The notes: a model not told the origin generated them from the letters alone. Positions 7,330 to 51,521 are shown, counted from the first letter of the stretch. The stretch: 64,000 nt of DNA from a virus (IMGVR_UViG_3300036939_000074); one strand, 5' to 3'. Numbers and translations are program-made.

Positions 7330-7347
7330 CAACTTAAGCGCTGATAT

Positions 7348-12244: not shown

Positions 12245-12273
12245 ATTATACATTAGTTCTACTAATGTGACAA
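12245..12273 (-). promoter_or_regulatory. sigma70-like promoter with palindromic spacer
   Basis: TTGTCA-cattagtagaactaatg-TATAAT. Confidence 0.7.
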
Positions 12274-12299
12274 TACAATTGTCATGTTATTTCTAATAT

Positions 12300-13346: not shown

Positions 13347-13376
13347 ATTTCTACCTGCGTGAGAGTCTCACAGATG

Positions 13377-13391
13377 GCGCACTAAGTGCGC
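13377..13391. repeat. Dispersed palindrome GCGCACTAAGTGCGC, copy 3
   Basis: Exact match, about 31 bp upstream of the 13346 start. Confidence 0.9.
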
Positions 13392-13527
13392 GCTTCAAAA
13401 ATAATACCCTAAATAAAAGCGGGTCAGAGTCAGTGCCTTAACTTGATAGGGGTAGGTTTTATGGGTTGTAGGTATTATCCCATCGTTGTGTTAAGCATAA
13501 GTCGAGGCACTGATTGATGAATCTTTG

Positions 13528-13803
13528 TTACTCAAATTCAGCCTGAATCGGCTCAAGGTAAGTAGAAAGAAAGTTGTAAGTAAAACCGAACAAATAGCCC
13601 TGAAGAGCGCCACCGATAATACCGGCGAAAAGATAGGTTTCCAAATAGTTCAGCAAAAATGCAAGGATGGTGTCGGATGTAAAACCGAGATTGCTAATCG
13701 TGATAATGGCTCCAATAGGGAAGGCCAAAGCCAGGAGGAAGGTATTGAAAGCCATACCGTACTTTGCTGCTAAACGGCAGTCAAAGGATTTAATATTTTT
13801 CAT
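13528..13803 (-). CDS. Two-helix membrane protein, family B copy 3
   Basis: Paralog; start MKNIK at 13803. Confidence 0.8.
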   Translation of the reverse strand: MKNIKSFDCRLAAKYGMAFNTFLLALAFPIGAIITISNLGFTSDTILAFLLNYLETYLFAGIIGGALQGYLFGFTYNFLSTYLEPIQAEFE

Positions 13804-13872
13804 GGTTGCAATGCTTGAAAATGAGGGGGTTGTTAAAAGCGGGTGAAGCAAGTTTTTTTGTTCAATACCTTG

Positions 13873-13901
13873 ATTGTACATTAGTTTTTCTAATGTGACA
13901 A
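13873..13901 (-). promoter_or_regulatory. sigma70-like promoter with palindromic spacer
   Basis: TTGTCA-cattagaaaaactaatg-TACAAT. Confidence 0.7.
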
Positions 13902-14191: not shown

Positions 14192-17100
14192 TCAAGAGAA
14201 AACATCTTCCAAACTGTTCACCACTTCAAGTAGTTGCAATTGAGATTGATGCCAAAGGATGAACCATTCAAAAGTTTTGCTGTGGCTGCACTCCAGGCAT
14301 TGCATTCTCAGAAGTCGCACGGCTTGAGCGAGGAAGATATCCGTAATCCAGGGAGGGGGGGGGAGGGTTTTAATCCACTCAATCACGGTTTCATCAACAC
14401 CTGTGTAGATGGCGGGGGTTGGCGCTTCAACAATGCCCCCTGGTTCCCACGCCTCTTGTTCATCCTCCTTGGAGTCTAACTGGCTTCGCAGCTCTAACTC
14501 TTTGGCGGTTAGGGCGCTGACTTCATCCCCTAGTTTGCTGACTTCGCTGGTGAGGTAGGTAATGCGTTCTGGTAGTAACCGTTGATGTTCTCGTTCAGCA
14601 TCGATCTTCTTGCTTAATCGGTCAACTTCGTACCCGTGACGAACCTCCCGGAGAGTGGTGCGGATGGCGTTGATGAACTTCTCACTAAATACCCAACTCA
14701 GCGAGACGGGATAAAAGATGCGGTAGGTTTGCTCGTTGTGGGTGTACGGAACTCCGGCGAGGTCAAGGCTCTCAATACTCTTACCACTGAAAAAGCTCAC
14801 CACAATGTCTAAGCCCGCAATTTGACCAATTTTTTTATGTTGGCAACGCTTACCGGCTTTGATGATGGCGTTGATTTTCCCCTGGAGGACAATATCCGCC
14901 TCTTGCACTTTGGTGGTGAGGGTTTTGCCGATTTGGATTGAGAAGGTGTCTCCGGTGAGGGAGCCGTGTTCTTTTACGGTTTCTTGGTCTACTTGGCTAG
15001 CTTTGTATTTGGCTTCTAGAACACCCAATACAGAGCCGCAACTCTCTGAGTAGTAGCGGTATTGGGAGAGGCGGGTTTGCTGTTCTTTGAAGGTGTGGTT
15101 TTTTTGCCGCAGCTGGTCTTTAACTTGGGCATATTCCAGCGCTGCTGTATTGCCGCTCATGATGGCGGCGGCCACGAGATAATACGAAGCGTCATCGCCG
15201 ATATCTTGGGTGCGACGGGATTCAAGCTTGCCGCTGGCATACTGGTGAGCCATGGCAGCGCGGTGCCGCACAAGATTGGCTTTCCAAGCGTCGAACCCAG
15301 GCTGATTGCCAGCCCCTAAAGTCCCGTAGTCAAAAGCCCAAACATCGTCGTGGGGGTTCCCCTGTCGGACAACTCGCCCTAATCTCTGCAATGGGGGTGA
15401 CCAATCTAAATCGAGGAGATGAGCGGCGATCGCTCCGCCATACCAAGTGTTTCGGACGCCTTGTGCATTCACACCCGTACCTCCGCGACGTGTCGAAGCG
15501 AGCAGCATCGCGGTTTCACCATTATTCATCTTATCAAACAATTTCTGTTTTGTCTTGGCATCGTACTCGTGGATAAAGGCGACTTCTGTTTCCGGAACTC
15601 CCAATGCAACCATGCAATCTCGGATGTACCGATAAACCGTGAATCGGTTATGAGGTTTGGGTACCCCACTGTTACAAAATATGAATTGAGTCGCCTTAGT
15701 TTCTCGCGTGGCCTGCCATACCCACCACGCATTGTGGATCAAGCGATGTAGCTTCGTATCGCACTCAACAGTTTCCACCTCTTTAACGAGCCGGGGGTCA
15801 ATGGACGCGGCTGAACCCATGCTGGTTAGGGTGAGAGGGTTATGGTTTGTCCAGTTGCCAGTTTTTGGGTGGACGTATTTCGGGGGCCTGCGCTTCTGCC
15901 ATGCTTTCAGCCAGTTTTTGATGTCTTCGTTGATGGCCGCTTGCTCGTCGGATAAGGGGGAGGTGATGGTGTAGCGGTGCAGTTGGGGGCGCTTGATTCC
16001 AACTTTTTCCGGGTCAGGGGCGAAGTCGGTAAAAGTGGCCGCTAAATCTAACATCTCGTCTTGGTTTTTGAAGCCACTGATTCGAGTTTTCTTCTTAATC
16101 CCACCCATACTCGTAAATTCTGGCTGGGTGGAAATTTCCCCAAAGTTACCAATGAAGCTATCGAAGTGGGCGTTACCCGTTTCTTCTATCTCATCAGGGG
16201 CAAAGAGCCTCAATAAGTTGAACATCTCACTAAAACTGACTTCTGGAAATAAGCCCGTTCCACCCCCAATTCTGCCACCGTTTCTCAACGTCCAATTGAA
16301 TTTCAATAGGGAGTTGAGAGAGCGTTGAGTGTCTGTATTGGTAATACCTGAAATGGTTCCGGCAATCTTACTGGGGTAGCGGATGTTCTTCAACATTTGA
16401 AGTTCATCAAAGCAGATGAGGGGCCTTTTTGCAATGTCTTCCCAGTTTAAAGCGATGGAATTGCGGCAATAATGACTAACGGCTTTTTCCAAAGAGCGTT
16501 TTAGGACTTTGATGGTTTTATCGCGCTCTTTTTCTCCCATTAGTTTAACGTATTCGTCGCGAGTTAGTCGTTGCTGTTTAGGCACAAATTTAACTTGCCC
16601 ACTATTACTCACTCGAATTGCCCCTTTATCCAACAAGTCATCCATGACTGGCATCATGGATTGGGGGTCATTCCCCGCGTCTTCAATCGCGCCAATGACT
16701 TCTAGGCGCTCAATTTCTTGGCGCAAGGAGTGGGCGTGAGCAAGCAGGTCTCCGTGGAGTAAAGACTCTTTTGTTGCATCAACTTCTTGCAAGTAACCTT
16801 CAATGACCGACAGTTCTTCAGAGATGTATTGAACCTTCGTCCGCCACCCAATGGGGATGCCATAGAAGGCAGTGTGAGCCAAGATGATGCAGTCATAATT
16901 TCCGGTTTGGCAGCGCCGTAATGTGGCGTTGCGAGTTTGTGCCCCCCCATCTTCGGCAATTAATAGTTTAGCCTTGGGATAAAGGGTTTTAAATTGCCCG
17001 ACAAACTGGGAGACGGTATCGTTGAGGACAGAGATAAATGCCTTGTCAACTAACCCTAATCGCTTGCATTCCATTGCAACGGCACAGTAAACAAAGGTTT

Positions 17101-23664: not shown

Positions 23665-25363
23665 GGGATTCGTCCTCTCCCGGTGGCAGCATCTCAACTC
23701 GCTTCATCGGCTGTTCTGGAGTTAATTCGATGGGTTGAGAGGTCTTTTTCTCAAGGGTAATTTTAGGAGCACTCGCCGGCTTGAGGGTTGGGACAATTTT
23801 CTTGGGCTTTTCTGGCTCTAAGGCTGGAATGCTATCTAACCCTTGAGACGGGAGTACCTTGATTTCCAGTTTGGGTTTTTCTGGCTCTAAGGCTGGGATG
23901 CTATCTAACCCTTGAGATTTGAGTACCTTGATTTCCAGTTTGGGCTTTTCTGGCTCTAGGGCTGGAATGCTATCTAATCCCTGAGAGGGGAGTACCTTAA
24001 ATTCCGGCTTGGACGGCGGGAGCGCTGGACTGTCTTTGTAGCTTGCAGGGCCAAACACTTTACTTTCTGCTGCACCAAGTTCCATTAACTCAGTTTCAAT
24101 CTCAATCGACTCTCTGATTTGGATGGGGCAATAGACCCATGAATCATCTACTACCACCCGGGTTGTGTCGAAGTAATTGAGATATTCTCCTTTGAGCTGC
24201 AACAGTTGATAAAAGGAGATGATGAGCGGTCCCCAAAAGTCTTGGTCATTCTCACTTAAAAACACCTCTGGGTCAACCGTTTCTGGATTGGGGTAAACGA
24301 ATTCGGGCATGACAAAGTAGCCCGTGAGAATAGCCGCTTTGGCGATTAGGGGGTCTCTTTGGCTCCCTGTGAGGTTGCGAGTGTAGTTAGAAGCCGCCAG
24401 CACATCGGCTGGGGTAATTTCTGGTACAAACAAAAATTGCTCGGTGTCTCTCCCTAACCCTAGGTCGGAGAACAAGACACTATGATAGCCAACCGGATTT
24501 TCAAATTCAGGTCTGTGGCAATAGCCAACTCGATTTAGGAGCCAGCCAAACCAATCGCAACTATCCCACAACAAGAAAAAAGCTGGGTTCCAGACGGCAA
24601 CCAGTCGGTTGTGGGCTTGTCCATCCCAGGAAATCTTCTTGTGTAAATGGGCTTCTAGAGTAGCAAAATCATCAACTTCACCCGGGTCATAATCTTTCTC
24701 GTCGGGGAAGTCGGTCATGCAAGGATGACCCAATGACCAGCAGCACCAATCGATCAAATATTCCGCTGCGGCAATCCCGTGCCGTTTACTCAAAGACCAG
24801 TGTTCGGTGATTTGAGAGAGCAAATACTCCAAGTATTGCTCGGTTCGTTTGTGGATTGAACCCAATGTGAGTTGGGGGATGGGTGCTTTGCAGCGCGATC
24901 GCTCGTAGTCTAGCCATCGCCCATTGCCGGATTCAATTTCAGCCTGAATTAATAATTTGAGTGCCCAGCCGGGAGTGTTGCCAATCACAACTCGGTTGGT
25001 CAGTTCTACTCCAGGTTGGTACTGAGTAAAACCATGGTCGTCAATGGATATAATGCCACGAGTCCACCCGGTGGGAGTGTAGCCGGGGCGGCGCTCAAAG
25101 CCATTTCTAGGGGCGGGGAAGGGTGTATTGTCCAGTCGATACCGGAGAGCATCTAGCGTGAGAGAATCTAGTTCCTGGATTTTCTCCTTGGTTGGGTTCG
25201 CATACAGCGGGGAATCTTTATAAATCCCAGCAACCGTCTCGCGCATCACCCACCAATTCATCGGTTCGGTAATGTTGGATGGGCGCGCATCATCCATCAT
25301 CTGGGCATACATCCAGCGGTCGTTCAATGCCGGAAGGAGTACGTCTTGTATGTTATTTTCCAT
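23648..25363 (-). CDS. Hypothetical protein, distant paralog of 20194 with C-terminal 23-aa repeats
   Basis: PIPQLTL...EYLIDWCCWSLGH...DWFGWLL...AASNYTRNLTG...GYFVMP. Confidence 0.55.
   Translation of the reverse strand: MENNIQDVLLPALNDRWMYAQMMDDARPSNITEPMNWWVMRETVAGIYKDSPLYANPTKEKIQELDSLTLDALRYRLDNTPFPAPRNGFERRPGYTPTGWTRGIISIDDHGFTQYQPGVELTNRVVIGNTPGWALKLLIQAEIESGNGRWLDYERSRCKAPIPQLTLGSIHKRTEQYLEYLLSQITEHWSLSKRHGIAAAEYLIDWCCWSLGHPCMTDFPDEKDYDPGEVDDFATLEAHLHKKISWDGQAHNRLVAVWNPAFFLLWDSCDWFGWLLNRVGYCHRPEFENPVGYHSVLFSDLGLGRDTEQFLFVPEITPADVLAASNYTRNLTGSQRDPLIAKAAILTGYFVMPEFVYPNPETVDPEVFLSENDQDFWGPLIISFYQLLQLKGEYLNYFDTTRVVVDDSWVYCPIQIRESIEIETELMELGAAESKVFGPASYKDSPALPPSKPEFKVLPSQGLDSIPALEPEKPKLEIKVLKSQGLDSIPALEPEKPKLEIKVLPSQGLDSIPALEPEKPKKIVPTLKPASAPKITLEKKTSQPIELTPEQPMKRVEMLPPGEDESHASPR
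23802..24008. repeat. 69-bp tandem repeat x3 (coding KVL-SQGLDSIPALEPEKPKLEI)
   Basis: Units at 23802, 23871, 23940. Confidence 0.9.
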
Positions 25364-27176: not shown

Positions 27177-27188
27177 AGTCGTGGTGTG

Positions 27189-27203
27189 GCGCACTAAGTG
27201 CGC
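27189..27203. repeat. Dispersed palindrome GCGCACTAAGTGCGC, copy 4
   Basis: Exact match between the 27176 start and the 27236 stop. Confidence 0.9.
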
Positions 27204-27235
27204 GGTGAGAAGTTTTGATAAGCCTGCACCGTGAC

Positions 27236-31810: not shown

Positions 31811-31849
31811 TGATTTTGGTAAGAGATGGGAACATTACGGCAGCCGTCG

Positions 31850-31878
31850 GCGCACTAAGTGCGCGAGACTAAGTGCGC
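31850..31878. repeat. Dispersed palindrome copy 5 plus a partial tandem copy
   Basis: gcgcactaagtgcgc-gag-actaagtgcgc between convergent genes. Confidence 0.9.
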
Positions 31879-32832
31879 CTATTCGGCACTTGCACCTTGC
31901 CGCTTATCCTTAATCAAGCCCTCATAGAGCAAGCCCAGGCCGATTATGGCGCATTCCTTAATCTTGCCTTCCATGCCCAGCTGCTGAAGTTTGTCTTCGG
32001 GTTCTAATGACAATCTCAACTCTATAGAGCGATTAGGGGATTCCTCGGTTTTTTGGGAATACGCTTCAATTTTATGAAGAATGCTCTTGTCCTCTCTGTA
32101 GAAATAGATGTAGCTAATTGCTGATTCCAGCAGAGTTTTTATGGATATTCCCAGAGCTTCTGCCAGCTCGTTGATCATTTTTTGTTCAGAAGGCGTGAAT
32201 TCTAGGGTAGTCTTTGACTTTCGTGTGGCTTCTTCATCTTCTTCGGCTTGACGAATTGCCTCTTCAATAGATAGCTCGAGTTGAAAATCCTGGGATTGAG
32301 TATCTAATCCTTGAGGAGAGTTCTCCTCGTCCAAGGCGAAACGCTCATCGTTGTGGTAGAACCAGTCTGTGGAAAAAATGATGTCCTCATGCAGTAGACT
32401 ATTCTGCCAGCGGAAATGACCCAAACCACTAATCTCAAGATAAGAACCAGCGGTGCGACGGAGACGTTGCTCCATGATTTCTTCAGGAAGTGTTGCTCCA
32501 ATAATTTCAATATGCCCCAAATCTCCGTCTGCTTCAGCTTCGTCGAACTCAAGTAAGTCGATAAACTTCTCAAGCGTCTCTCGTTTAAAATAACTTAGGC
32601 GATCTGGGTCATGATAGGTGTGTCCCCGAAAAATAGGCTTGAACTTGGGTTTCCCAGCCTGATCATACTTATCAAGAGCTAATTTATGATCAGAGATGGA
32701 AGATGCGATCGCGTCTTTGAGGTCTTTCAGGAACTCAGGTGTTAATTCAAAAGTGGCAAATTCGTAAGTGTTGCCCTCTAACTCCCACTCATCGGGAGCA
32801 TAGCAGCGGTTGCGAATAATTGCAGTCTTCAT
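31879..32832 (-). CDS. Mosaic protein A (domain X plus RHH-like C-terminus)
   Basis: N-term shared with 32853; C-term FTPSEQKMINELAEALGISIKTLLESAI resembles ribbon-helix-helix. Confidence 0.6.
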   Translation of the reverse strand: MKTAIIRNRCYAPDEWELEGNTYEFATFELTPEFLKDLKDAIASSISDHKLALDKYDQAGKPKFKPIFRGHTYHDPDRLSYFKRETLEKFIDLLEFDEAEADGDLGHIEIIGATLPEEIMEQRLRRTAGSYLEISGLGHFRWQNSLLHEDIIFSTDWFYHNDERFALDEENSPQGLDTQSQDFQLELSIEEAIRQAEEDEEATRKSKTTLEFTPSEQKMINELAEALGISIKTLLESAISYIYFYREDKSILHKIEAYSQKTEESPNRSIELRLSLEPEDKLQQLGMEGKIKECAIIGLGLLYEGLIKDKRQGASAE

Positions 32833-32852
32833 GGATTGTATGTGTCGTAGGT

Positions 32853-33644
32853 TTAGTTTCTGAGCCAGTCAAGGGTGCTTTCTAGCTTCTTGCGGGTATC
32901 CTTGCGGATAGAAGATGAAGCAAGCTTGCTACAAATTGCGTCTTGGATGCTTGCATTGAGATAGCGTCGTTGTCCCGCTGACTTGGTGAAGGACAACCCG
33001 CGAGTCAATTCTTTGGCTAACTTATCTGAAAGCCTGCCGTTTTGGACTAAGTCTGTCAGGGTTAGGAAGTCTGATGCTGGACGTTCTGAAGCTTCCGGCG
33101 CTGCCGTCGGCTCCGAGATCTGAGTTAGGGAGTGTGTTGGGGAAGAGTTCTCTTCATCCAGGATTAAGCGTTTGTTGTCGCGATAAATCCAGTCTGTAAA
33201 AAGAGTAGCGTTTCCATAAGTTGGCCTGTTGTGCCAACGAAAATTATCAAAACAACCCGTCTCAAGGTAGGCACCCATCGTGTACAGACATTCCTCCCTA
33301 ATTTCTTCGGGTAATGTCCCTTCAAAAATTAGGATGTGGCCTGAATCTTCAGCTTCGTCGAACTCCCGTAAGTCGATAATTTTTTGAAGCGTCTTTCGGT
33401 TGAAATAAGTTAGGCGGCATGGGTCTTGATAGATGTGCCCCCGAAGGATAGGTTTAGTTCTGGGGCTTCCAATTCTATGATATTCAGCTAAAGCAAGGTT
33501 GCTCTCAGAAGCGGAAAGCGCAAGCGCCTCATCGATGTCTTGGAAGAATTCAGGTGTTAATTCAAAAGCGGCGAAGTCATAAGTATCGTCTAACTTCAAC
33601 CGATATGGATCATAGGAGTGATTACGAATAATTGCAGTCTTCAT
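32853..33644 (-). CDS. Mosaic protein B (domain X plus domain Z)
   Basis: MKTAIIRN N-term as in 31879; LAKELTRGLSFTKSAG C-term as in 33664. Confidence 0.7.
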   Translation of the reverse strand: MKTAIIRNHSYDPYRLKLDDTYDFAAFELTPEFFQDIDEALALSASESNLALAEYHRIGSPRTKPILRGHIYQDPCRLTYFNRKTLQKIIDLREFDEAEDSGHILIFEGTLPEEIREECLYTMGAYLETGCFDNFRWHNRPTYGNATLFTDWIYRDNKRLILDEENSSPTHSLTQISEPTAAPEASERPASDFLTLTDLVQNGRLSDKLAKELTRGLSFTKSAGQRRYLNASIQDAICSKLASSSIRKDTRKKLESTLDWLRN

Positions 33645-33663
33645 GGCTTGTATGTGTCGTAGT

Positions 33664-34821
33664 TTAGTCTCTGAGCCAATTCAGCGTTTCGTTTAGTTTT
33701 TCGCGGGTTTCTTTGCGGATGAATGCTGAGCAAAGCTTGTTGTGAATTGCGTTTTGGATGTCTGCTTTGAGATAACGTCGTCGTCCACCCGCTGACTTGG
33801 TGAAGGACAGTCCGCGAGTCAGTTCTTTGGCCAAGCTGTCTGAGAGCTTACCTTGATAAGTTAAGTCGCTTTGAGTTAGAGTTTTTTCAGCTTTAGCTTC
33901 TGAAGATTTCGTTTCTGTTTCTGTCAGTTTATCCATCCAGCCGAGGCGGTTCAGGAGCTGTTCGAGTGTGTAGGCGAGTCCGTTTAATTGCAGGCGGATA
34001 GTTGCGTCATAAGTGGGGCTTGACGCCAACGCTCTGGTCATTAGTCGCAGTTCCTTTAAGTCATAGAACAGTCTGCCCTCTTTTGACAAGGTAAGGCTAC
34101 CGCTAGCTTTAATGAAGTGCTTTAGAGCAATAATGGTCTGAGTGTCTAAATTGAACCAAAGCCTGAGACCAAATTCGGGGAAGGGATACTTTTTATCTAA
34201 TAGCGCTTTGTGTTCATCCGAGAGTAGGTCGAACCCTAACAGTTTTGCAATCGTGTCGATGCTTGGATTGTACTCCAGCTTCTGAGCAATGATGTAATCC
34301 TCTAACTGGGCAAGCAACTCTTCTTGGGTTAAAGATGCTGCGGTTGAAAATGTTTTCTCAAGCTCTGTAGTTTTAGTCTTGGCTTTTGATTTAGGCGCGG
34401 GATAGCGGTCGTTGAGATATTCAAATTCCTTATGAGCAAACAGAGCCAAGGCCCACTGTCTAGCTTCAGGAGAATCAGGCTCGCTCATGATTCGATAGCT
34501 TTCTTCGCCCTTGATTTTGATACAGAGAAACTTCTTGCAGGCTTGCTTGATTTCTAGGTCTTCAATCATCTCGTCAATCAGCTCATCGTTCTGCTCAAAG
34601 TCAAACTTAAAGTGATGAGCTGCAATTAGTTTGGCTAGGTGTTCGTTGAATAATTTTTCGGCTTCGTCATTGAGCCAGAGCCACTCGTAAGAGCCGCCAG
34701 TGCCGGCACTGGAAATAATGGCAGCGTGTTTTTTATTGATGTACAGGTTGAGTTGGAAGCGTAGAGTATCCTCTCTCCCTGCCATTTTGAGGTTCTTAAT
34801 TTCTAATTTTAAATCTTTCAT
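33664..34821 (-). CDS. Mosaic protein C (domain W plus domain Z)
   Basis: Last about 70 aa similar to the C-term of 32853. Confidence 0.7.
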   Translation of the reverse strand: MKDLKLEIKNLKMAGREDTLRFQLNLYINKKHAAIISSAGTGGSYEWLWLNDEAEKLFNEHLAKLIAAHHFKFDFEQNDELIDEMIEDLEIKQACKKFLCIKIKGEESYRIMSEPDSPEARQWALALFAHKEFEYLNDRYPAPKSKAKTKTTELEKTFSTAASLTQEELLAQLEDYIIAQKLEYNPSIDTIAKLLGFDLLSDEHKALLDKKYPFPEFGLRLWFNLDTQTIIALKHFIKASGSLTLSKEGRLFYDLKELRLMTRALASSPTYDATIRLQLNGLAYTLEQLLNRLGWMDKLTETETKSSEAKAEKTLTQSDLTYQGKLSDSLAKELTRGLSFTKSAGGRRRYLKADIQNAIHNKLCSAFIRKETREKLNETLNWLRD

Positions 34822-35036: not shown

Positions 35037-35474
35037 CTAGAAGCGTTCGATGTAGTAGTAGGTTTCGTCTTCGAGGCAGTTGAGGATTTGCAGTAGTGTG
35101 CCGAGGTTAGAGGAAGCTTTTAAGCAGTCTTCAGCAGAAAAATACTCCTCAGCGGGACTTTTGCAGTATTCTAAATCGTCATCGTCTCTAGAATAATACT
35201 CACTAGAACAACCGTCGTTAAATCGCTTGAGCAGTAAAGCGCTTTCTGTGGCGATTGCCTCTAACAGGAAGGTTTTGAGCTTTTTGCGATTGATTTTTGT
35301 AAGTCGGGTGAAGAAGAGTTTTGTATCATCTCCTTCCATCGTTCTGATGGTCGCTCTAGATGTAGTGATAATCTTAGAAAACTCTGACTGCTTGAGTTGA
35401 TTGTAAAATTCGGCTGTTATATCTATGCAGGAAATATGCAGCCCGAATATTGAGTAGAAGTTAATTTTTGTCAT
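35037..35474 (-). CDS. Hypothetical protein (paralog of 36228)
   Basis: S-FSKI...EG...LTK-NRK...FLL-AIATESA shared. Confidence 0.7.
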   Translation of the reverse strand: MTKINFYSIFGLHISCIDITAEFYNQLKQSEFSKIITTSRATIRTMEGDDTKLFFTRLTKINRKKLKTFLLEAIATESALLLKRFNDGCSSEYYSRDDDDLEYCKSPAEEYFSAEDCLKASSNLGTLLQILNCLEDETYYYIERF

Positions 35475-35507
35475 GAGCTTATTAATTGTGGCGAAGGAGC
35501 TGGAGTC

Positions 35508-36212
35508 TTAAAATAACTCCCATGAGGGCTGACGGTGTTCAAAGATGTAGCTGATAGCAAAGTTTTGGAAGTACTCAGGTGTACCGAGCCATGTCTGCAT
35601 CTCATCCTTGAACTTCTCAAAGTTGGTGGTGGAGGGATTGCAGCCAGCGGCAATGAGTCGTTCTTCGATGTCGTCGTAATGCCAGTAGTGAAACAACAAT
35701 TCACCGCCGTATTCTTTTTCTAGGTGATGAATGATTTCAGCCGGACTTAAGTCAGAAAGCGCCGATTCACTTTTGTAGGTGTTGAAGAGCGGCAACTCAT
35801 CGTCATCAGAGTAGTCGTATGTTTTATCTGTGGCGGGCTGAAAATCAGGGATTGAACTCTCGCTGTCATAGCTCCAGTCGTTAAGGAAATTCGCACATTC
35901 AAACAGGGTGTCGGGGTGGTGTTGGATGCCGTCAAAGGTATCTTGGTCGCACAGTCCACACCCGCCGTATAACTCTCGTTGGGCGTTTTGGATTTCGTCT
36001 AAATATAATGAGCTGAACAGGAATGGTGCTTTTAATGCTTTAGCGGTGTTTCGTGCTGTTTGTTCTAGTTCTTCAGTCTTGTCATTGCCGCCTTCAGGTG
36101 ACAAGTCGATGGAGGTGAGAATGAGTTCGTCGTTAATAGCAAATGTGGAGATTGAAAAGGTGCCATTGTGGCTGCTACCCGCTCGCAGAATAGCGTATTT
36201 GATTTCGGTCAT
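35508..36212 (-). CDS. Acidic hypothetical protein
   Basis: 234-aa ORF containing CGLC. Confidence 0.6.
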   Translation of the reverse strand: MTEIKYAILRAGSSHNGTFSISTFAINDELILTSIDLSPEGGNDKTEELEQTARNTAKALKAPFLFSSLYLDEIQNAQRELYGGCGLCDQDTFDGIQHHPDTLFECANFLNDWSYDSESSIPDFQPATDKTYDYSDDDELPLFNTYKSESALSDLSPAEIIHHLEKEYGGELLFHYWHYDDIEERLIAAGCNPSTTNFEKFKDEMQTWLGTPEYFQNFAISYIFEHRQPSWELF

Positions 36213-36227
36213 TGCTTTTAGCCTCGA

Positions 36228-36638
36228 TTAGATGCGCTCGATGTAGTAGAAAGTTTCGTTTTCGATGCAGCTGAGAAGCTCTAGCAGTGTGGCGAGGTTG
36301 AAGGAAGCTTCTGTGTAATCCATTATTTCTATGCCTTGCATCGCGTTGTAAGTGTCACCGCCCAGTTGTTGCTCTTTGGAAGCTAACGTTTTGAGCATGG
36401 CAGCGCTCTCTGTTGCGATCGCATTTAACAGGAAGGTTCTGAACTGTTTACGATTGGCTTTGGTGAGCTTGATTAAAAGCAGTTCTGTTTTCTCTCCTTC
36501 GATTGTGAGCTTCGTCAATTTAGATGCGCCACCAATTTTGGAGAAGTCTGACCGCCCTAGTTGCTGATAGAGATTAGTTGTTAGGTCTAGGCAGGCATTT
36601 TTTTGCCCGTCTTTGGAGTGGAATTGAATATTTAACAT
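36228..36638 (-). CDS. Hypothetical protein (paralog of 35037)
   Basis: Shared motifs; both end E-ET-YYIER. Confidence 0.7.
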   Translation of the reverse strand: MLNIQFHSKDGQKNACLDLTTNLYQQLGRSDFSKIGGASKLTKLTIEGEKTELLLIKLTKANRKQFRTFLLNAIATESAAMLKTLASKEQQLGGDTYNAMQGIEIMDYTEASFNLATLLELLSCIENETFYYIERI

Positions 36639-37915: not shown

Positions 37916-39352
37916 ATGCTAATTACTTCCACTACCTTTTCTCGACAACGCATTAAGAGGCTCTCCGCTTTGCTCATATGTGCCCTAGCTAGTTCCCTTG
38001 TTAAAGGTGGGATATTTGACCAGCGCGTTACCTTGCTCCGTAATCAAATTAATTCTGTACACCAAGAAATCGTTAGCTTGGAGAAGCTTTCAAAAGCTGT
38101 TCGGTTAGCTGAATTTAATGAGATGGCCGCTGTTTTAGCAAGAGGTCGTTATGTTGATGAATATTTTGTGGATTATTACAAAGCGAAGGAGTCAGCCAAC
38201 TTAGAGATTGAATTCCTTTCTCGTACACTTGATACCCGTAAACTCAAGGCAGAACTTAATTCAAGGTTTACTGAGTTAGACAAAACAATTCAGCTCTTAA
38301 AACTAAAAAGAGATAAGGCAACACTCGATAACCTGACGACAAATAATCGCCTTTTATCAATGAAGCGGATAGTCGGTCATATAAACCAAATCGAAGCCCG
38401 ATCTTATTACAAACAGAACATTTTAACTCAAAAACTCAATCGCAATTTATGGTTGAGATACATCCTGTGGGTATTAACTTTAGTTTTTGCTGCCTCATCT
38501 TTTAGTTATGCGGCTTTTCTTCTATTAGCAACAAGGCGAGAACGATTAAAAACTCTAAAAACCCTACAGCTTAAAACGAGTGAGCAGGAAGAAAAGCTAC
38601 ATCAATTACAAGAAGAATCCCAAAAAACACATGCTGAGACCATGGCTCGGTTGCAAAGCAGCGAGGATAAGGAAGCTTTAAAAAATGTCATCCTTTCTAC
38701 TTTTTTGCACGACTCTCGTACCTATCTGGCTATTGTTAGAAGTTCAGCCGAGATTATGGAGGAATACGAAGGGAAGTTGAATTTACAGCAAAAAGAGAGG
38801 CATTACGGCAAAATTCATCGAGCTGTCGATTCATTATTGAGCTTAACAGATAATTCTCTACTGTTACTAAAAGACACAGATGCCAAGGTCAACACGTACT
38901 CCTTGGATTTAAGGCTTTTTTGTGAAGAGGAAATCGATAAATGGTGCCTTTTATGTAAAGGGACAGGACGAACTTTTAAATTTGAACAAAGTGGCATGGA
39001 ACGCCCTGTCATAACGAGTAAAATGCTTCTGACTCGTATGTTCGACAATTTGGTCGGAAATGCGATCAAGTATTCGGACCAAGAAATTGTGATTCGCCTA
39101 GATTTCACGAATCCCTCTCAAGTTGTACTTTCTGTAATTGATGCAGGTCCCGGAATTAAAGAGACCGAATTGCAGGGAATCTTCGATACTTGTATTCGCG
39201 GCAGCAACTCTGGGAGTGCGTCTGGCTTTGGGATTGGCCTTGCCAGTGTAAAAAGAGCAGCCCAAGTCTTGGAGCTTGGGCTGGATGTGTGGAGTGAAGA
39301 GGGGGTGGGAAGTGAATTTAGGATTATTTTTCGGGAGCCTCTAACTCCTTGA
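37916..39352 (+). CDS. Membrane sensor histidine kinase (orphan)
   Basis: Two TM segments; H-box FLHDSRTYL; NLVGNAIKYS, VIDAGPGI, GFGIGL. Confidence 0.9.
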   Translation: MLITSTTFSRQRIKRLSALLICALASSLVKGGIFDQRVTLLRNQINSVHQEIVSLEKLSKAVRLAEFNEMAAVLARGRYVDEYFVDYYKAKESANLEIEFLSRTLDTRKLKAELNSRFTELDKTIQLLKLKRDKATLDNLTTNNRLLSMKRIVGHINQIEARSYYKQNILTQKLNRNLWLRYILWVLTLVFAASSFSYAAFLLLATRRERLKTLKTLQLKTSEQEEKLHQLQEESQKTHAETMARLQSSEDKEALKNVILSTFLHDSRTYLAIVRSSAEIMEEYEGKLNLQQKERHYGKIHRAVDSLLSLTDNSLLLLKDTDAKVNTYSLDLRLFCEEEIDKWCLLCKGTGRTFKFEQSGMERPVITSKMLLTRMFDNLVGNAIKYSDQEIVIRLDFTNPSQVVLSVIDAGPGIKETELQGIFDTCIRGSNSGSASGFGIGLASVKRAAQVLELGLDVWSEEGVGSEFRIIFREPLTP

Positions 39353-41813: not shown

Positions 41814-42611
41814 TTAAACTTGGCTTGTTACTGGAATTTGCTCGCTGCCAACGATGAGGTCACTGCGCTTGAGCCAGAGAACGAAAACTTTGCCGAATCC
41901 TTGTTCGGCTACATTCCACCCGTCAATATCGTTGGTATTGACTTCTTGAAGTTCATAATCTGCTATGATTTCCGCTTCCACCAAGCTACGACAACGTTGG
42001 GCTGTGTCTTGGCGAATTAATTCCCAAAACATTTCGACGGGGCCGGCGAGATTTTTATAGTGATAGTAAATAGCGAGTTTAATGGAAGTGCTTAAAATTG
42101 ATTGAGCCAAAGACCGGAGTGAGTCAGCATCTAACGGTTTACAGGTTGGCTCCCCAACCCCAGGACGGCGATAGCCAGACAAACTCGCAGGCGCATCAAT
42201 TTCTAAGTAGCTAGGGATTTCATCTACATCGCCGTTGTAGTTCTGATACAGCCATTTCAAGAACGGCTCATATAACGGGCCTACCCAAATCCGATGTTTC
42301 TCCAGTTCGTACTCGCAACCATCCCGATTGAGGACAGGGAAAATAGCACCTTCTCCAGTTTGGAGGTCGAAAACCCAAAGCCATTTTTTCACGTCATCCC
42401 AATATCCAATTTTTGCCAACAATGGAGAATTGCTTACCATTGAGATGTACGAAGTTTCGTCTTCGTCGAACTGAGCGACAATAAATTTTCCCCAATTAAC
42501 GAGTTGTGGTTGGCAAACTTCAACGATTTTTGATCTCATGATGCGCTCGAATGTGACTCTTGATGGCAATAATACTGGACAAGAGAAAATAAGTGACGCA
42601 TCAATAGACAA
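41814..42611 (-). CDS. Hypothetical protein (tandem paralog of 42666)
   Basis: NWGKF...WVFDLQTGEGAIFP...IWV-PLYEPFL-WLY; true start may be 42539. Confidence 0.75.
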   Translation of the reverse strand: MSIDASLIFSCPVLLPSRVTFERIMRSKIVEVCQPQLVNWGKFIVAQFDEDETSYISMVSNSPLLAKIGYWDDVKKWLWVFDLQTGEGAIFPVLNRDGCEYELEKHRIWVGPLYEPFLKWLYQNYNGDVDEIPSYLEIDAPASLSGYRRPGVGEPTCKPLDADSLRSLAQSILSTSIKLAIYYHYKNLAGPVEMFWELIRQDTAQRCRSLVEAEIIADYELQEVNTNDIDGWNVAEQGFGKVFVLWLKRSDLIVGSEQIPVTSQV

Positions 42612-42665
42612 AACACCCGATTATTATAAATGCGCGAACATTTTAAATATTGTTTCGTTCAGGCT

Positions 42666-43430
42666 TCACCCCGTTACAGAACTCGGCTCACTGTCAGCAG
42701 TGAAGCCGTTAGCTGTGAGCCGGAGGATAAAAATCTTACCAAATCTTTGAGTATTGTAGGCTTGCTCTTCAAGAAGAGTGTAGTTTGCGATCACTCTCTC
42801 TTCCACCAGCTGGCGGCAACGAACGGCAACCTCTTGGCGAATCAACTCCCAAAACACTTCCAAGGAGACAGCAACATCCTTTTTATAGCGTTTTTCAAGA
42901 ACAAATTTGATGGAGATATTTAGAATTGCCTGAGCCAATGCGCGGAGTGACTCCATATCCAACGGTTTACTGGTGAGTTCCCCAATTCCAGGACGACGAT
43001 AGCCATGCAGACTTGCAGGCACATCAATTTCTAAGTAATTAGGGATGTCATCTACATCGCCGTTGTAGTTTCGGTACAACCATTCTAGGAACGGCTCATA
43101 TAAGGGGCAAACCCAAATCTGATGTTTCTCTAGGTCGTACTGGCAACCACCTCGATTGAGGACAGGGAAAATTGCACCTTCTCCGGTTTGGAGGTCAAAA
43201 ACCCAAAGCCATGTTCTTAGATCCCCCCAATATCCAATTTCTGCCAGTAAGGGAAAATTACTGACAGCTGAGATGTGTGAGGCTTCCTGTTCGTCAAATT
43301 GAGCAATGATAAACTTGCCCCAGTTCACGGGCTGCGGTTGGCAAACTTCAACAATTTTTGACTTCATAATGCGTTGGATGTAGCTATACGGCAATGGTAC
43401 TGGACAAGGGAGATTCATAGACAAAAACAC
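42666..43430 (-). CDS. Hypothetical protein (tandem paralog of 41814)
   Basis: Highly similar over the first about 150 aa; true start may be 43367. Confidence 0.75.
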   Translation of the reverse strand: MFLSMNLPCPVPLPYSYIQRIMKSKIVEVCQPQPVNWGKFIIAQFDEQEASHISAVSNFPLLAEIGYWGDLRTWLWVFDLQTGEGAIFPVLNRGGCQYDLEKHQIWVCPLYEPFLEWLYRNYNGDVDDIPNYLEIDVPASLHGYRRPGIGELTSKPLDMESLRALAQAILNISIKFVLEKRYKKDVAVSLEVFWELIRQEVAVRCRQLVEERVIANYTLLEEQAYNTQRFGKIFILRLTANGFTADSEPSSVTG

Positions 43431-45582: not shown

Positions 45583-45939
45583 TTAACGAATTGCCCCTTC
45601 CGGTGGTGGCGGGTCTGGGAGCCGAAGCTTTGGCTCATCGTTTACTTTAATATTCCACGGTGAGGGAAATTGCTGTAGGACATATTCCACGTTGTTGAAA
45701 TCTGAGTAGCCCCACTTCCCCGACTTCAGGCCATCCATCAGTCTGCCATTGCTGCCAATTGCAGGTAGTCCGACATAGTAATAAATGAATTCGGTGACTT
45801 CCTTACTATCTTTATCCAAAAACAGCTCTATCTGAATTTGCGCTATCTGAGCCGTGGTTTCTAATTTGTCCCCTTGCATCGGGGTCAACGTAATTTCGCA
45901 AATTTTTTTTGAACCCAGTTTCACCGTGAAACCGCTCAT
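45583..45939 (-). CDS. Hypothetical protein
   Basis: 118-aa ORF with GAGGA upstream. Confidence 0.6.
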   Translation of the reverse strand: MSGFTVKLGSKKICEITLTPMQGDKLETTAQIAQIQIELFLDKDSKEVTEFIYYYVGLPAIGSNGRLMDGLKSGKWGYSDFNNVEYVLQQFPSPWNIKVNDEPKLRLPDPPPPEGAIR

Positions 45940-46547: not shown

Positions 46548-46573
46548 TAAAAAAGCCGTCCATTAGGACGGCT
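46548..46573. terminator. Terminator between convergent genes
   Basis: A-run followed by agccgtcc-atta-ggacggct. Confidence 0.6.
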
Positions 46574-46967: not shown

Positions 46968-48137
46968 TTAAAGAAACCCCAATGTTTGCAGCGCTTTTTG
47001 GAGGTACTGCACATTAGAGGTGCTCTCCTTGGGTAGCACTTCGCAGACATACAAGGGATTGCCCATCGCCTTTAATCCGTGCCGCATCACAGAAGACTCT
47101 ATGGAGCCAAGCGGCTTAACATTGTGCATCCGAATCAGGACATTTAAAACACTCAGAATCCGCTCCGCATCTTCCTCTGTCCCTGACCCCTTGCATCCAA
47201 AATGCATCAGCCAGTCGGGGAATAGTTCAATTTCGTAAGCGTGAGTTATGGCATGAGGAACGACGGAGGGAGAGACTAATGCTTTCTTGCCCACAACGGC
47301 AATCTCACAAGCTTTTTTGATAGCCCAGAACATCGGCATTAACTGCATGGGCAGCTGTGACTCAATTGGAACATTTGAATAGACCCAAACTTTCTCATGT
47401 TTGTAATCGCTGCCAAACATAACAGCGCGAAGGGTCAACTCTTTTTGCCATTGAGGCAACACACAGGCTTTAAGCGCTGATGAACCCAATGACCGACGAT
47501 TGCTGTAACATTGCACCCTGTAGGGTGAACCCGAAGCAGAAGCAACAGACGCCGGCTTACCCGTGATTGCACAGACGGAACGTATCCCCTCGCCTCTTTT
47601 TGAGCGCTGTTTGGCATGAGTGTAGTTATTGAGTTCCTCCGTAAACGAGATATCTGCTGATATCTCTTTAGGTTTGGAGTTGAGATGGGGTTGAAGGTAA
47701 TCGGCCAGCTCAACCAATTTGGCTTTATCCAGCCCTTCGGCTTCCTCCACCTTGGCAAACAGCAGCCAGTAGCCCAATTTTAATCCGCCTGATTGAATTT
47801 CAAGTTCATCTGGGGATATCAGCGGGTACTTTTGGAGCAGCGCCTCTTCAAATACCTCTGCATTTGGGGCGAGGCTCCGCAGGAATATGGCAAAATCTGC
47901 GAAGCGATCGCACCAAATAGATGCGGGGATGCTTTGCCCTATCTTAGCTAAACGGGCTGGGGCGTAAGAGTTTTTGTAGGCCATCACTTTGGCAATGACC
48001 GACTCAATGACAGTTGTTAGGGGAAGTTCACAGAACGACTCAGGAGCTGTTAAGCCTTTCCCATGACGCTCAATCGCGTCTGAAATAACAATCGCTTGCT
48101 GTTGTTCGCTTAAAAATTCAGTTAGTAGGGCAAACAT
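46968..48137 (-). CDS. cas10d: Truncated Cas10d/Csc3 (type I-D large subunit) homolog lacking the HD domain
   Basis: Collinear motifs ERHGKGL, CDRFADF, EIQSGG...GYW, FTEELNNY..AK...CAIT, QCYSNR..LG...W..ELTLR, GKKALVSPSVVP match the middle of cyanobacterial Cas10d as I recall it. Confidence 0.78.
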   Translation of the reverse strand: MFALLTEFLSEQQQAIVISDAIERHGKGLTAPESFCELPLTTVIESVIAKVMAYKNSYAPARLAKIGQSIPASIWCDRFADFAIFLRSLAPNAEVFEEALLQKYPLISPDELEIQSGGLKLGYWLLFAKVEEAEGLDKAKLVELADYLQPHLNSKPKEISADISFTEELNNYTHAKQRSKRGEGIRSVCAITGKPASVASASGSPYRVQCYSNRRSLGSSALKACVLPQWQKELTLRAVMFGSDYKHEKVWVYSNVPIESQLPMQLMPMFWAIKKACEIAVVGKKALVSPSVVPHAITHAYEIELFPDWLMHFGCKGSGTEEDAERILSVLNVLIRMHNVKPLGSIESSVMRHGLKAMGNPLYVCEVLPKESTSNVQYLQKALQTLGFL

Positions 48138-48727
48138 AGACCCTCCAGCTGATGGTAGGCGAGTTTGTAGCGATCGCTTAGGTGGGTCTCGACTTCTTGC
48201 AGTAGTTCTTTTTCAAACTCACCGACAACAGCTTCTAGCTCCTGGCGGTGAGTTTCATACAGCTGACCGACCAAGACTTGGTCGGGGATTTCCAAAAACA
48301 ACTCTAAAGTGTAAACCCGCAAGTCTTGGGTTTGAGCCTTCATGCCCTTGGCATTGTAGACAAGTTGCCTCATATTGTCCTCGCCCGGATCAACGTCACC
48401 TGGGGCAATGATGGCAAAACCAATGCCGTGCTGGACAAACAAACTGGCGAGCTGGGGGCAAAACAGCTCAATTTTTTGCGTGAGATGGTTAAAGGATTTA
48501 TCGGGATACTCCGACCATGCAATCGCCGTCAACAACCGAGACTTAAACCCTAATAGGTCAAAGATTTCGCCATAATAGGACTCGGATAATTCAATTAATT
48601 CAACCATGCCCGCCATGTTGGATTTTTCTACAATACTGCGGAGTAAACGAACATCTTTTTGCAAGTCTCGGTTTTTTTGCCGAGCCGCAAGGAGGGCTAG
48701 TTTCAAACCATTAGTTTTATCTGACAT
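48122..48727 (-). CDS. Hypothetical protein, overlapping both neighbours
   Basis: 201-aa ORF with short overlaps on each side. Confidence 0.65.
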   Translation of the reverse strand: MSDKTNGLKLALLAARQKNRDLQKDVRLLRSIVEKSNMAGMVELIELSESYYGEIFDLLGFKSRLLTAIAWSEYPDKSFNHLTQKIELFCPQLASLFVQHGIGFAIIAPGDVDPGEDNMRQLVYNAKGMKAQTQDLRVYTLELFLEIPDQVLVGQLYETHRQELEAVVGEFEKELLQEVETHLSDRYKLAYHQLEGLCLPY

Positions 48728-49052
48728 ACAAAAATTCCTGTTCTACTCGCTGCCAAAATCCAGGGTTCTCATTGCAGGCGGGTTGATAGGTAGCGCTCTC
48801 TTCACAAAGCGCCAAGCCGATACCCTGCCCTTGATACTCACTCTTGACTTCAATCGCCACGCACAAAAAGTCTCTGTCGCGGGTCAAGAAGCCGACGATG
48901 GGCATATCCTCTCGGCTCTCATCTACGGCTAGCCAACAGCGAGCAATGTTGGTCTCATCCCAGTCGTCCCACCAAAGGTCAAAACCATTCAGCTCACTCA
49001 GCCACGGCTGAAGCTCTGCGTATTCGTACTCAACAATACTGATATTTTTCAT
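48717..49052 (-). CDS. Minimal GNAT-family acetyltransferase
   Basis: IEVKSEYQGQGIGLAL (acetyl-CoA motif A), NENPGFW. Confidence 0.7.
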   Translation of the reverse strand: MKNISIVEYEYAELQPWLSELNGFDLWWDDWDETNIARCWLAVDESREDMPIVGFLTRDRDFLCVAIEVKSEYQGQGIGLALCEESATYQPACNENPGFWQRVEQEFLYVR

Positions 49053-50200: not shown

Positions 50201-50938
50201 TTAGTTACCGACCAACACTTCTTCTTTGTTGAGGGGGCAAGGCGCTTCTAGGTATGTTTTTAACCGGGTGTAAGCTGCATTAACTTCTGTAAACTTTGCA
50301 GCATTACCGCCTCGGTCGGGATGATGTTTGAGGGACATTCTTCGGTAAGCTGTTTTTAGCTCTGCGAGGGTGTACTGCTGCCGAGACAAGCCTAGAGTTT
50401 GGTAGTCGGCGTGCGCGCCCAGCCTTGGTGCTTGGTTCTTTTGATGATTGTGGTTGCTACTTCCTGATTTTTGGCTGTAATGATCGCCTTGGTGATTACT
50501 ACTTCCTGATTTTTGGTTATTTTTGCGCTTACTTCCGGGGGTTGCTGGCGGCTTTTTCCCCCAGTATGTGCGACTCTCCATAATTACCTTTTCCGTGGCG
50601 TCCGAGGGTGTTTTGCACCAACGAGTCCAAAGCCGCTTATCATCCAATGTCGGGTGCAGATTCCAGTGACTGATTTCCCCAACACGGATAATACATGTCC
50701 AATCACGACCAACACAAAAGATGAATCCGCGTCTCATCTTTTCTGGTTTGGTCGTGTCAAACACTTCATACAGATACTCAGGGGTTTTGGAGTAATTTGC
50801 CCAAAAGCGGGTTTTGATGTCGTTAACAGTTTCCTCATGGCAAGGATGCACAGGTTCACCATGAATTGCAATCAGCCGTATCTCAGCTCTGTAGCCTTGA
50901 CGGGCATAGTACATCGTTTCCTTCAAATTTTTTCTCAT
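50201..50938 (-). CDS. Protein with C-terminal DnaJ (J) domain
   Basis: YQTLGL...LKTAYRRMSLKHHPDRGG...F-EVNAAY--L. Confidence 0.85.
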   Translation of the reverse strand: MRKNLKETMYYARQGYRAEIRLIAIHGEPVHPCHEETVNDIKTRFWANYSKTPEYLYEVFDTTKPEKMRRGFIFCVGRDWTCIIRVGEISHWNLHPTLDDKRLWTRWCKTPSDATEKVIMESRTYWGKKPPATPGSKRKNNQKSGSSNHQGDHYSQKSGSSNHNHQKNQAPRLGAHADYQTLGLSRQQYTLAELKTAYRRMSLKHHPDRGGNAAKFTEVNAAYTRLKTYLEAPCPLNKEEVLVGN

Positions 50939-50940
50939 CT

Positions 50941-51312
50941 CTATCCCCGGCTTAACACAGACATGATGTACTGATTCAAGCTCACATTTTCCGCCCTGGC
51001 TTTTTCGGTCAGACGACGATGCAAACTTTTAGGTATCCGTACAAGCAACCTACCACTGTAGGTATCGTCGGTACTGGGTAAGGGAATGTCATCTCCATTT
51101 TCGTAGGCAGTCTCAACCCACAGCTGCCTTGCCTCATTGATGTTTGCGATCGCTTCATCTAACGTTTCAGCTTGGGTGAGGCATCCCTGTAGCTCCTTGA
51201 TTTCGACCACATACCCTGATTCCGGGTCGGGATAAAGCGTAATTGGGTATTTCACCTCCAAGTAATATGCCAATGGCTTTCTGCTGTCTTGGTTCATCTT
51301 TTTACGACTCAA
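50941..51312 (-). CDS. hicB: HicB family antitoxin (orphan)
   Basis: GYVVEIKELQGCLTQAETLDEAI...IPLP; YSGRLLVRIPKSLHRRL...ENVSLNQY RHH domain. Confidence 0.9.
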   Translation of the reverse strand: MSRKKMNQDSRKPLAYYLEVKYPITLYPDPESGYVVEIKELQGCLTQAETLDEAIANINEARQLWVETAYENGDDIPLPSTDDTYSGRLLVRIPKSLHRRLTEKARAENVSLNQYIMSVLSRG

Positions 51313-51351: not shown

Positions 51352-51432
51352 CTTCCGGAATTATTTGCCGGAAAAATTGATGAACCAATAAGGTCAATTT
51401 TGGGAACCATTGGTTCCCGGTTAGGTCTGTTG

Positions 51433-51447
51433 GCGCACTAAGTGCGC
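51433..51447. repeat. Dispersed palindrome copy 7
   Basis: Extends to ttggcgcactaagtgcgccaa (51430-51450). Confidence 0.9.
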
Positions 51448-51521
51448 CAATTTGCTTACAAGGGTCAAGACCTTTCTCCTCAACGGTTTCAAGAATTTTA
51501 AGGGTGCTGTACTTACAAGGG

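Follow-up and report, generated by a model that had tools for sequence, protein, structure and literature searches.

A diverged Cas10d core without nuclease, encoded beside a small predicted acetyltransferase on a cyanobacterial plasmid-like element: a candidate anti-CRISPR directed at type I-D

The 64,000-nt sequence of IMGVR_UViG_3300036939_000074, hereafter called the window, carries on its minus strand an open reading frame (ORF) of 389 codons (46968-48137, ATG start) that encodes a homolog of Cas10d, the large subunit of type I-D CRISPR complexes. We refer to this protein as the Cas10d core. Its gene is preceded by a GGAGG Shine-Dalgarno sequence 5 nt 5′ of the start, which lies within the 3′ end of the preceding gene, and it is the last of three overlapping genes encoding, in this order, a very small GNAT acetyltransferase (mini-GNAT), a 201-aa protein, and the Cas10d core. 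The mini-GNAT stop overlaps the start of the 201-aa gene by 11 nt, and the stop of the latter overlaps the Cas10d-core start by 16 nt. An earlier note on this DNA had described a solitary cas10d homolog within a compact operon. The operon is a translationally coupled cassette; "solitary" is valid with regard to cas genes only, since the ORF sits in a conserved three-gene cassette. The features of the locus are as follows:

46968..48137, minus strand: Cas10d-core homolog, 389 aa, 43 kDa, isoelectric point (pI) 7.1, matching Synechocystis Cas10d residues ~305-826
48122..48727, minus strand: 201-aa acidic protein of no assigned family, with a predicted N-terminal helix followed by an α/β part
48717..49052, minus strand: predicted mini-GNAT acetyltransferase, 111 aa, pI 4.1, with a Q-x-x-G-x-G acetyl-CoA loop
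46614..46823, minus strand: 69-aa ORF that lies downstream of the Cas10d core and may be co-transcribed with it
46554..46573, minus strand: terminator-like hairpin with an 8-bp stem (6 GC pairs) followed by a T-run, a pattern match only

As judged from this pattern, the hairpin would terminate the minus-strand transcription unit. Loci of related elements are labeled L001-L008 below; the 69-aa ORF lacks conservation in the other element types, being missing or differently arranged in L001, L003, and L008.

The motifs by which the earlier note had recognized the protein are all present and in the same order: AIERHGKGL, CDRFADF, ISPDELEIQSGG..GYW, SFTEELNNYTHAK..VCAIT, QCYSNRRSLG..WQKELTLR, and VVGKKALVSPSVVP. 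The alignment of these motifs with Synechocystis Cas10d, as given in the earlier note, was reproduced independently by phmmer, PADLOC, hhalign, Foldseek, and VIA-align. A phmmer search against all sequences of the PDB returned a single protein, Cas10d (7sba_I, E 1.4e-6), and paired GKGL with residues 325-328 and QSGG..GYW with residues 431-440 of this chain. In profile searches for Cas10d/Csc3, the PADLOC model Cas10_Id matched with an E of 1.5e-11, and the Cas10d equivalog TIGR03174 matched over model positions 447-572 with an E of 3.6e-7, although its score of 28.6 bits is below the 60-bit cut-off. Pfam and PHROGs gave no match for the Cas10d core. A profile built from six family members again found Synechocystis Cas10d as the sole match in the PDB (E 9e-18), and hhalign against seven Cas10d proteins from cyanobacterial and Chloroflexota plasmids aligned residues 22-242 with Cas10d residues 321-585 (99% probability, E 2e-18).

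The predicted fold agrees with the sequence comparison. An AlphaFold2 model of the Cas10d core (predicted local distance difference test, pLDDT, 75.6; residues 155-226 poor) gave one significant Foldseek match, again 7sba_I (E 5e-10). Superposition on the type I-D Cascade structure with VIA-align, a check that the earlier note had suggested, aligned 339 residues with a Z-score of 12.7, so that residues 1-389 of the model span Cas10d residues 305-826. The identity to true Cas10d proteins is 24-28%. Taken together, the 389-aa protein is a true, diverged homolog of Synechocystis-type Cas10d.

The superposition also defines what has been removed. The HD domain comprises the first ~300 residues of Cas10d, and the homolog begins at the equivalent of residue ~300. 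At the other end, Cas11d is translated from M830 of Synechocystis cas10d (bioRxiv 10.1101/2020.04.18.045682), and the alignment of the Cas10d core ends at residue 826, short of this start. Because the superposed span of 305-826 has the HD domain before it and M830 after it, the Cas10d core is trimmed at both domain borders. The absence of the HD nuclease and of the Cas11d region, as proposed in the earlier note, is thus confirmed by this span as well as by the region-specific profiles described below. About 130 residues of internal Cas10d loops are deleted as well.

What remains is the PAM-recognition domain (PAM, protospacer-adjacent motif) together with the core of Cas10d. K27, within G-K-G-L, aligns with K326, the PAM-sensing lysine finger of Synechocystis Cas10d, and Q115-S-G-G-L-K-L-G-Y-W124 aligns with the glycine loop Q431-Y440, with Q115, S116, G117, and G118 corresponding to Q431 to G434; Y437 of Cas10d is replaced by Leu in the homolog. 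The GG and the G-Y-W are invariant in all six family sequences, and GKGL is found in each of the five that have an N-terminus. For the Synechocystis Cascade, both the K326A/P exchanges and a deletion of S432-Y437 abolish binding of double-stranded DNA (PMC9123187). The homolog further keeps the block F-x-x-E-L-x-N-Y-x-x-A-K .. C .. Y-S-N .. L-G .. E-x-x-L-R, and this F-x-x-E-L..E-x-x-L-R block is nearly invariant among true Cas10d proteins.

We searched for other components of a type I-D system with hidden Markov models (HMMs) of Cas3′, Cas7d, Cas5d, Cas6, and Cas4 built from seven annotated type I-D operons, with single-sequence models of Cas1 and Cas2, and with separate models of the HD, middle, and Cas11d regions of Cas10d. 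The search covered all six-frame ORFs of the window and of L001, L003, L007, and L008. The Cas10d-core genes were the sole matches in the window and the four related loci. The earlier note had recognized no cas3′, cas5d, cas6, or cas7d in the window, which these profiles confirm, and it had named a complete cas operon elsewhere on the element as evidence against its interpretation; the custom profiles match none within the 64 kb. The Cas11d-region profile found nothing in the window, and the HD-domain profile nothing significant. PADLOC was empty for the ten neighboring genes, no CRISPR-like repeat array was found in the window, and scanning the window for Rfam families and tRNAs gave no matches. 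No transposase families occur among the neighbors scanned with Pfam. A 118-aa downstream ORF (45583-45939) was considered as a separate Cas11d and rejected: the Cas11d-region profile is negative, and the ORF shows no conservation between element types.

Four full-length homologs of 390-426 aa with 52-84% identity, plus a few fragments, were recovered from protein collections of 5.8 billion and 1.8 billion entries. The resulting five intact full-length members (389-426 aa, 52-100% identical) stem from different element types and align collinearly; a sixth member, P0006 (295 aa), lacks the N-terminal part and is collinear with the others. Neither a tblastn search of PLSDB plasmids nor scans of IMG/VR and GTDB genome contigs revealed a relative; a genome-contig scan with Synechocystis Cas10d was empty, too. 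No fused form emerged from a search for longer proteins, a result that is weak as evidence. With the family HMM, Synechocystis Cas10d scores 67 bits and Gloeothece Cas10d 57 bits, and the other tested Cas10d proteins (Anabaena, Stanieria, Picosynechococcus, and Chlorohelix) score 19-29 bits; because the first two score highest, we regard a Synechocystis-type (lineage 1) system as the source.

Reading frames are intact down to 52% identity among the homologs. A comparison with the 84%-identical homolog gave 0.089 nonsynonymous (dN) and 0.62 synonymous (dS) substitutions per site and hence a dN/dS of 0.144, indicating purifying selection. For distant pairs dS is saturated, and dN/dS is 0.10-0.15 where computable. 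Based on this selection we consider the Cas10d core a working gene and not a relic. The earlier note had likewise argued against a simple relic, a view upheld by the dN/dS of 0.14, the intact homologs, and the conserved gene coupling.

This coupling extends well beyond the window. The trio recurs in a closely related element (L001/L002, L006) as well as on L007 and L008, two contigs that are otherwise different. The 201-aa gene lies directly upstream of the Cas10d core in four of the five element types, with 53-83% identity between its products. Pfam, PHROG, and PADLOC searches gave no match for the 201-aa protein, and hhalign found it unrelated to Cas10d. It was also considered as a remnant of the HD domain, but HMM matches were marginal (E 0.2-0.6) and hhalign assigned a probability of 0.6%, so that this assignment was rejected. 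In L003-L005, the GNAT gene directly precedes a 426-aa Cas10d core (L003 2572-3852; also L004 and L005), most of the 201-aa gene being deleted in frame. The extra N-terminus of this longer version consists of the first ~37 residues of the 201-aa protein, fused in frame. Because of this natural deletion most of the 201-aa protein appears dispensable, and the constant pair is GNAT plus Cas10d core.

The mini-GNAT gene is found upstream of every Cas10d-core gene with full context, with 66-87% identity, and its acetyl-CoA loop is invariant in the family (Q-G-Q-G-I-G). Its Pfam matches are under cut-off (Acetyltransf_7, E 1.5e-4; Acetyltransf_1, E 6e-4), and it has an Atlas score of 0.95 to small, mostly viral GNAT clusters. 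Since a profile search against PDB sequences gave no significant match, a fold search was needed: the top Foldseek matches of its AlphaFold2 model (pLDDT 74) are all acetyltransferases, with a probability of ~1.0 and an E of 2e-3. The product of 48717..49052 is therefore predicted to be a GNAT-fold acetyltransferase. Remoter relatives with 37-54% identity occur without a Cas10d core in L020, a contig of Nostoc sp. LPT, and in L022-L024. One such relative adjoins a DnaJ-domain ORF in a Nostoc genome contig, and another shares a phage-like contig with KilA-N, RusA, and a gene of the dCTP-deaminase family (DCD). A joint complex prediction of GNAT, 201-aa protein, and Cas10d core scored 0.02; it gives no verdict and carries no weight either way.

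The surroundings of the cassette differ between elements. In L007, it is located directly downstream of a DarB-like gene (793-6405), whose product is 43% identical to a DarB-like protein of the window; in the window itself, the DarB-like gene lies 27 kb from the cassette. In L008, an HTH_3 gene precedes the cassette, in the manner in which anti-CRISPR-associated (aca) regulator genes accompany anti-CRISPR (acr) operons.

The element had been taken for a cyanophage, and this designation is unsupported: its backbone is plasmid-like, and no phage hallmark genes were detected. The window contains ParA and ParB genes (Pfam) and encodes a 1137-aa Toprim/primase-like Rep, 92% of which aligns at 58% identity with a protein encoded by a 39-kb plasmid of Nostoc sp. 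UHCC 0870. This Rep is remotely related to proteins of other cyanobacterial plasmids, one annotated as CyRepA1 and another as a bifunctional primase/polymerase. Situated around the Rep and Par genes are a HicB-family antitoxin gene (50941-51312, minus), a gene for a protein of 245 aa that has a DnaJ (J) domain at its C-terminus (50201-50938, minus), and one for a 478-aa HATPase_c (histidine-kinase-like ATPase) protein (37916-39352, plus). The Cas10d-core gene is part of the variable accessory stretch located between Rep and Par. The palindromic cyanobacterial octamer HIP1 (GCGATCGC) occurs 33 times, compared with 0.7 expected by shuffling; this enrichment places the element in a cyanobacterial host background. 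A 1799-aa methyltransferase-helicase (14192-19591, minus) matches the PHROG "DarB-like antirestriction" with an E of 2e-215.

Apart from a tail-fibre-like repeat, PHROGs applied to 28 ORFs and Pfam applied to 30 detected no phage hallmark, and 19 tested ORFs were without a capsid, portal, or terminase match in PHROGs. PHROGs matched only the DarB-like protein, a weak primase, and a tail-fibre-like repeat, the latter being two short stretches within residues ~250-370 of a 1014-aa protein (215-3259, minus) that match tail-fibre PHROGs with an E of 3e-17. A megablast search of 20 kb and a tblastn search of the Cas10d core against 50,697 phage records returned nothing, nor did a tblastn search of a 571-aa ORF against phages; 10 large ORFs of the window were without a Pfam match. 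Because these searches of phage records, PHROGs, and Pfam found no phage identity, we dropped the term cyanophage. The tail-fibre-like repeat is the sole phage-like signal found and may leave a phage-plasmid reading open; a plasmid, or possibly a phage-plasmid, fits the element better than a cyanophage.

Some further observations concern the element as a whole. A hairpin-forming palindrome, GGCGCAC-TAA-GTGCGCC, is present in four copies (7314-7348, 27188-27222, 31849-31883, and 51432-51466), mostly at gene ends, and may be a terminator or an element resembling repetitive extragenic palindromes (REP-like) of this plasmid family. Tandem paralogous ORFs with 69-83% DNA identity between the copies are found at 31879-34821, 41814-43430, 35037-36638, and 11451-13881; they include consecutive genes for 317, 263, and 385 aa and a 265-/254-aa pair beside parA, and have no family assignment. 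Roughly where the window has, after a 236-nt spacer, an unrelated 254-aa ORF (42666-43430), the 84%-related element carries a gene of ~600 aa resembling class I aminoacyl-tRNA synthetases (PF00133/PF09334; L001 13920-15740, L002 14001-15740). In-frame tandem repeats occur in a 244-aa ORF (39 nt × 4.7, 5294-5475) and in the 571-aa ORF (69 nt × 3.1, 23802-24012), which suggests repeat-containing surface or structural proteins. A 620-aa ORF was compared with the DUF87 ATPase of the Nostoc plasmid and showed no similarity.

What might a plasmid do with the middle of a Cas10d protein? The reading we favor, tentatively and at somewhat less than an even chance, is that the Cas10d core is an anti-CRISPR directed against the type I-D system of the host, acting by subunit mimicry as a faulty large subunit. 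The preference is based on the anatomy of the protein and on the analogy to two inhibitors of type I-B systems: AcrIB3, which is homologous to Cas5 and copurifies with Cascade, and AcrIB4, which is homologous to the last 90 residues of Cas8b. In the same work, 358 viral cas genes were identified as orphans (bioRxiv 10.1101/2023.06.24.545427). By this scheme, a cyanobacterial plasmid-like element would have captured cas10d from a Synechocystis-type (lineage 1) system and trimmed it down to the portion flanked by the HD nuclease and Cas11d. The product would take the large-subunit position beside Cas5d/Cas7d on the CRISPR RNA (crRNA) complex or compete for those partners. The resulting complexes, lacking the HD domain, would be unable to nick DNA or to dock Cas3′, and they would be without the nucleation point that the Cas11d domain offers to the minor filament. 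The mini-GNAT and the 201-aa protein probably belong to the same counter-defense function. That the core binds subunits of the host Cascade, that interference is inhibited, and that the GNAT takes part in this are inferences.

Several observations agree with subunit mimicry: a Cas homolog is located on a mobile element, outside of cas operons and arrays, and a DarB-like anti-restriction protein is encoded on the same element, the L007 cassette even lying directly behind such a gene. Others weigh against it. The PAM-sensing lysine and the glycine loop are conserved, which a passive decoy would not obviously need and which hints at a DNA-binding role, and a passive decoy does not explain the obligatory GNAT partner. 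With an identity to Cas10d of only 24-28%, the Cas5d/Cas7d interfaces may be lost. The family is also very rare (5-8 members among billions of proteins), and Pfam, PHROGs, and PADLOC detected no known acr or aca family beside the Cas10d core. Since the PAM residues and the GNAT are left unexplained by a passive decoy, three other explanations stay alive.

The first departs from CRISPR altogether. Together with the GNAT and the 201-aa protein, the core could have been exapted by an accessory system of the plasmid, for defense, regulation, or maintenance, as a module that binds DNA or serves as a scaffold. The deep divergence from Cas10d (24-28% identity), the non-Cas nature of the conserved partners, and the position in the variable accessory region between Rep and Par, with HicB and the DnaJ-domain protein, would suit such a role. 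We nevertheless consider it unlikely, as the retained motifs are just those most conserved in genuine Cas10d, the PAM-reading elements included, and the cassette copy adjoining a DarB-like anti-restriction gene is a better fit with counter-defense.

Could the core instead be put to use as a working, guided DNA binder? A nuclease-free core joined by Cas5d, Cas6, and Cas7d of the host, and by crRNAs of the host or guides from elsewhere, would form a complex that reads a PAM and binds DNA but does not cut. The plasmid might use it for silencing, for competing with other elements, or for recruiting another activity, as likened to type IV systems and the type I-D CRISPR-associated transposon (CAST). 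The family-wide conservation of the K326-equivalent lysine and of the GG of the glycine loop speaks for this, mutation of either of which kills DNA binding of the real Cascade (PMC9123187). There is also a precedent in the type I-D CAST, where the nuclease was lost on co-option, the HD domain being inactivated and Cas3′ gone (PMC9881144). However, neither in the window nor in the related loci was a CRISPR array found, or genes for Cas5, Cas6, Cas7, or a transposase. The CAST Cas10d moreover keeps its mutated HD domain and Cas11d, both deleted in the Cas10d core, and without a Cas11d domain R-loop stabilization would rely wholly on Cas11d of the host. Such a hijacking of host components seems improbable to us.

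Just as doubtful is the view that the enzyme is the actual inhibitor. The mini-GNAT would then acetylate a lysine of the host effector, similar to AcrVA5, with the Cas10d core acting as its adaptor, its regulator, or a mimic of its substrate. Within the cassette, the GNAT shows the highest conservation (66-87% identity); it accompanies every Cas10d core of known upstream context, has an invariant acetyl-CoA loop, and is predicted to adopt a fold that matches acetyltransferases. DNA binding by type I-D hinges on the single lysine K326 (PMC9123187), and AcrVA5 is reported to acetylate the PAM-sensing lysine of Cas12a (PMC9114340). However, relatives of the GNAT with 37-54% identity reside on contigs, cyanobacterial or phage-like, that have no Cas10d core, and AcrVA5 is absent among the 50 listed Foldseek matches of the GNAT model.

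Elements of these explanations can be combined. That the Cas10d core is so constantly paired with a tiny acetyltransferase points to a mechanism that goes further than the mere poisoning of a subunit. In a two-part counter-CRISPR device of a new kind, the core would still read the PAM (GTN) or dock at the large-subunit site and act jointly with the co-translated mini-GNAT, either delivering acetylation to the type I-D Cascade, e.g., at the PAM-sensing lysine, or turning the host Cascade into a nuclease-free crRNA-guided DNA binder of use to the plasmid. As a joint proposal this has, in our estimate, a small chance of being correct.

That the gene is a functionless, decaying remnant of a plasmid-borne type I-D operon is barely credible: although in cyanobacteria type I-D operons frequently reside on plasmids and Cas10d has lost large portions at both its N- and its C-terminus, selection and conservation effectively refute it, given a dN/dS of 0.14, five intact homologs and P0006 that are collinear and not recent copies (dS is saturated for most pairs), a conserved gene coupling, a strong Shine-Dalgarno sequence, and clean cuts at the borders between domains.

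Among the type I CRISPR systems of cyanobacteria, type I-D is the principal one, and it is employed for genome editing in plants and human cells. If subunit mimicry holds, the Cas10d core, a compact natural fragment of 43 kDa, is a directly testable candidate off-switch for this system, and, as a product of nature, it may reveal which portion of Cas10d is sufficient for assembly or for the binding of a PAM. It would also be another example of mobile elements building counter-defense genes from the defense genes that they face. A Cas-derived inhibitor on a mobile element is of a known kind; a retained PAM-reading module with an enzyme as partner is unusual. A review from 2023 names AcrID1, from an archaeal virus, as the sole type I-D anti-CRISPR (PMC10212523), and our literature search turned up neither an orphan gene derived from Cas10d nor a bacterial protein directed against I-D. 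A two-part device, if true, would give bacterial type I-D a first anti-CRISPR and would be the first case in which such an inhibitor combines a Cas-derived scaffold with an enzyme.

Among known systems, the closest relation is to Cas10d/Csc3 itself (Synechocystis sp. PCC 6803, PDB 7SBA chain I). Homology of both sequence and fold extends over the central ~520 residues, and the lysine finger, the glycine loop, and the F-x-x-E-L..E-x-x-L-R block are common to both. In contrast to Cas10d/Csc3, the homolog has neither the Cas3′′ HD nuclease nor the Cas11d domain or an internal Cas11d start, and it is encoded outside any cas operon (cas3′, cas7d, cas5d, cas6) and without a CRISPR array. AcrID1 of the Sulfolobus virus SIRV3 shares the presumed target, the Cas10d position in type I-D; it is a 13-kDa acidic dimer unrelated to Cas proteins that binds Cas10d and comes from an archaeal virus. 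AcrVA5 and the mini-GNAT are alike in being very small GNATs of mobile elements, the mini-GNAT gene adjoining one tied to CRISPR PAM reading; between the two there is no sequence link and no structural link among the top-ranked matches.

The Cas10d of the type I-D CAST described by Hsieh and Peters (PMC9881144) is, like the Cas10d core, cyanobacterial, located on a mobile element, deprived of its nuclease function, and without Cas3′. It differs in being full length with a point-mutated HD domain and in being accompanied by Cas5, Cas6, Cas7, a short array, and Tn7 genes (PMC9881144), whereas the window is without Cas5, Cas6, Cas7, an array, or a transposase family. AcrIB3 and AcrIB4 of Listeria mobile elements act on another subtype in another host phylum, and their activity is experimental, whereas the Cas10d core is known here from sequence and models and sits in a fixed cassette with an acetyltransferase; the main text by Katz et al. 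contains no mention of Cas10d, type I-D, or cyanobacteria (bioRxiv 10.1101/2023.06.24.545427). In both cases, a lone homolog of a Cas subunit is found on a mobile element and forms its own diverged clade. The proposed mechanism, a faulty Cascade subunit, is the same as well. AcrIB4, too, is a fragment of a large subunit, but it keeps the C-terminal Cas11-like end, whereas the Cas10d core keeps the PAM-reading core.

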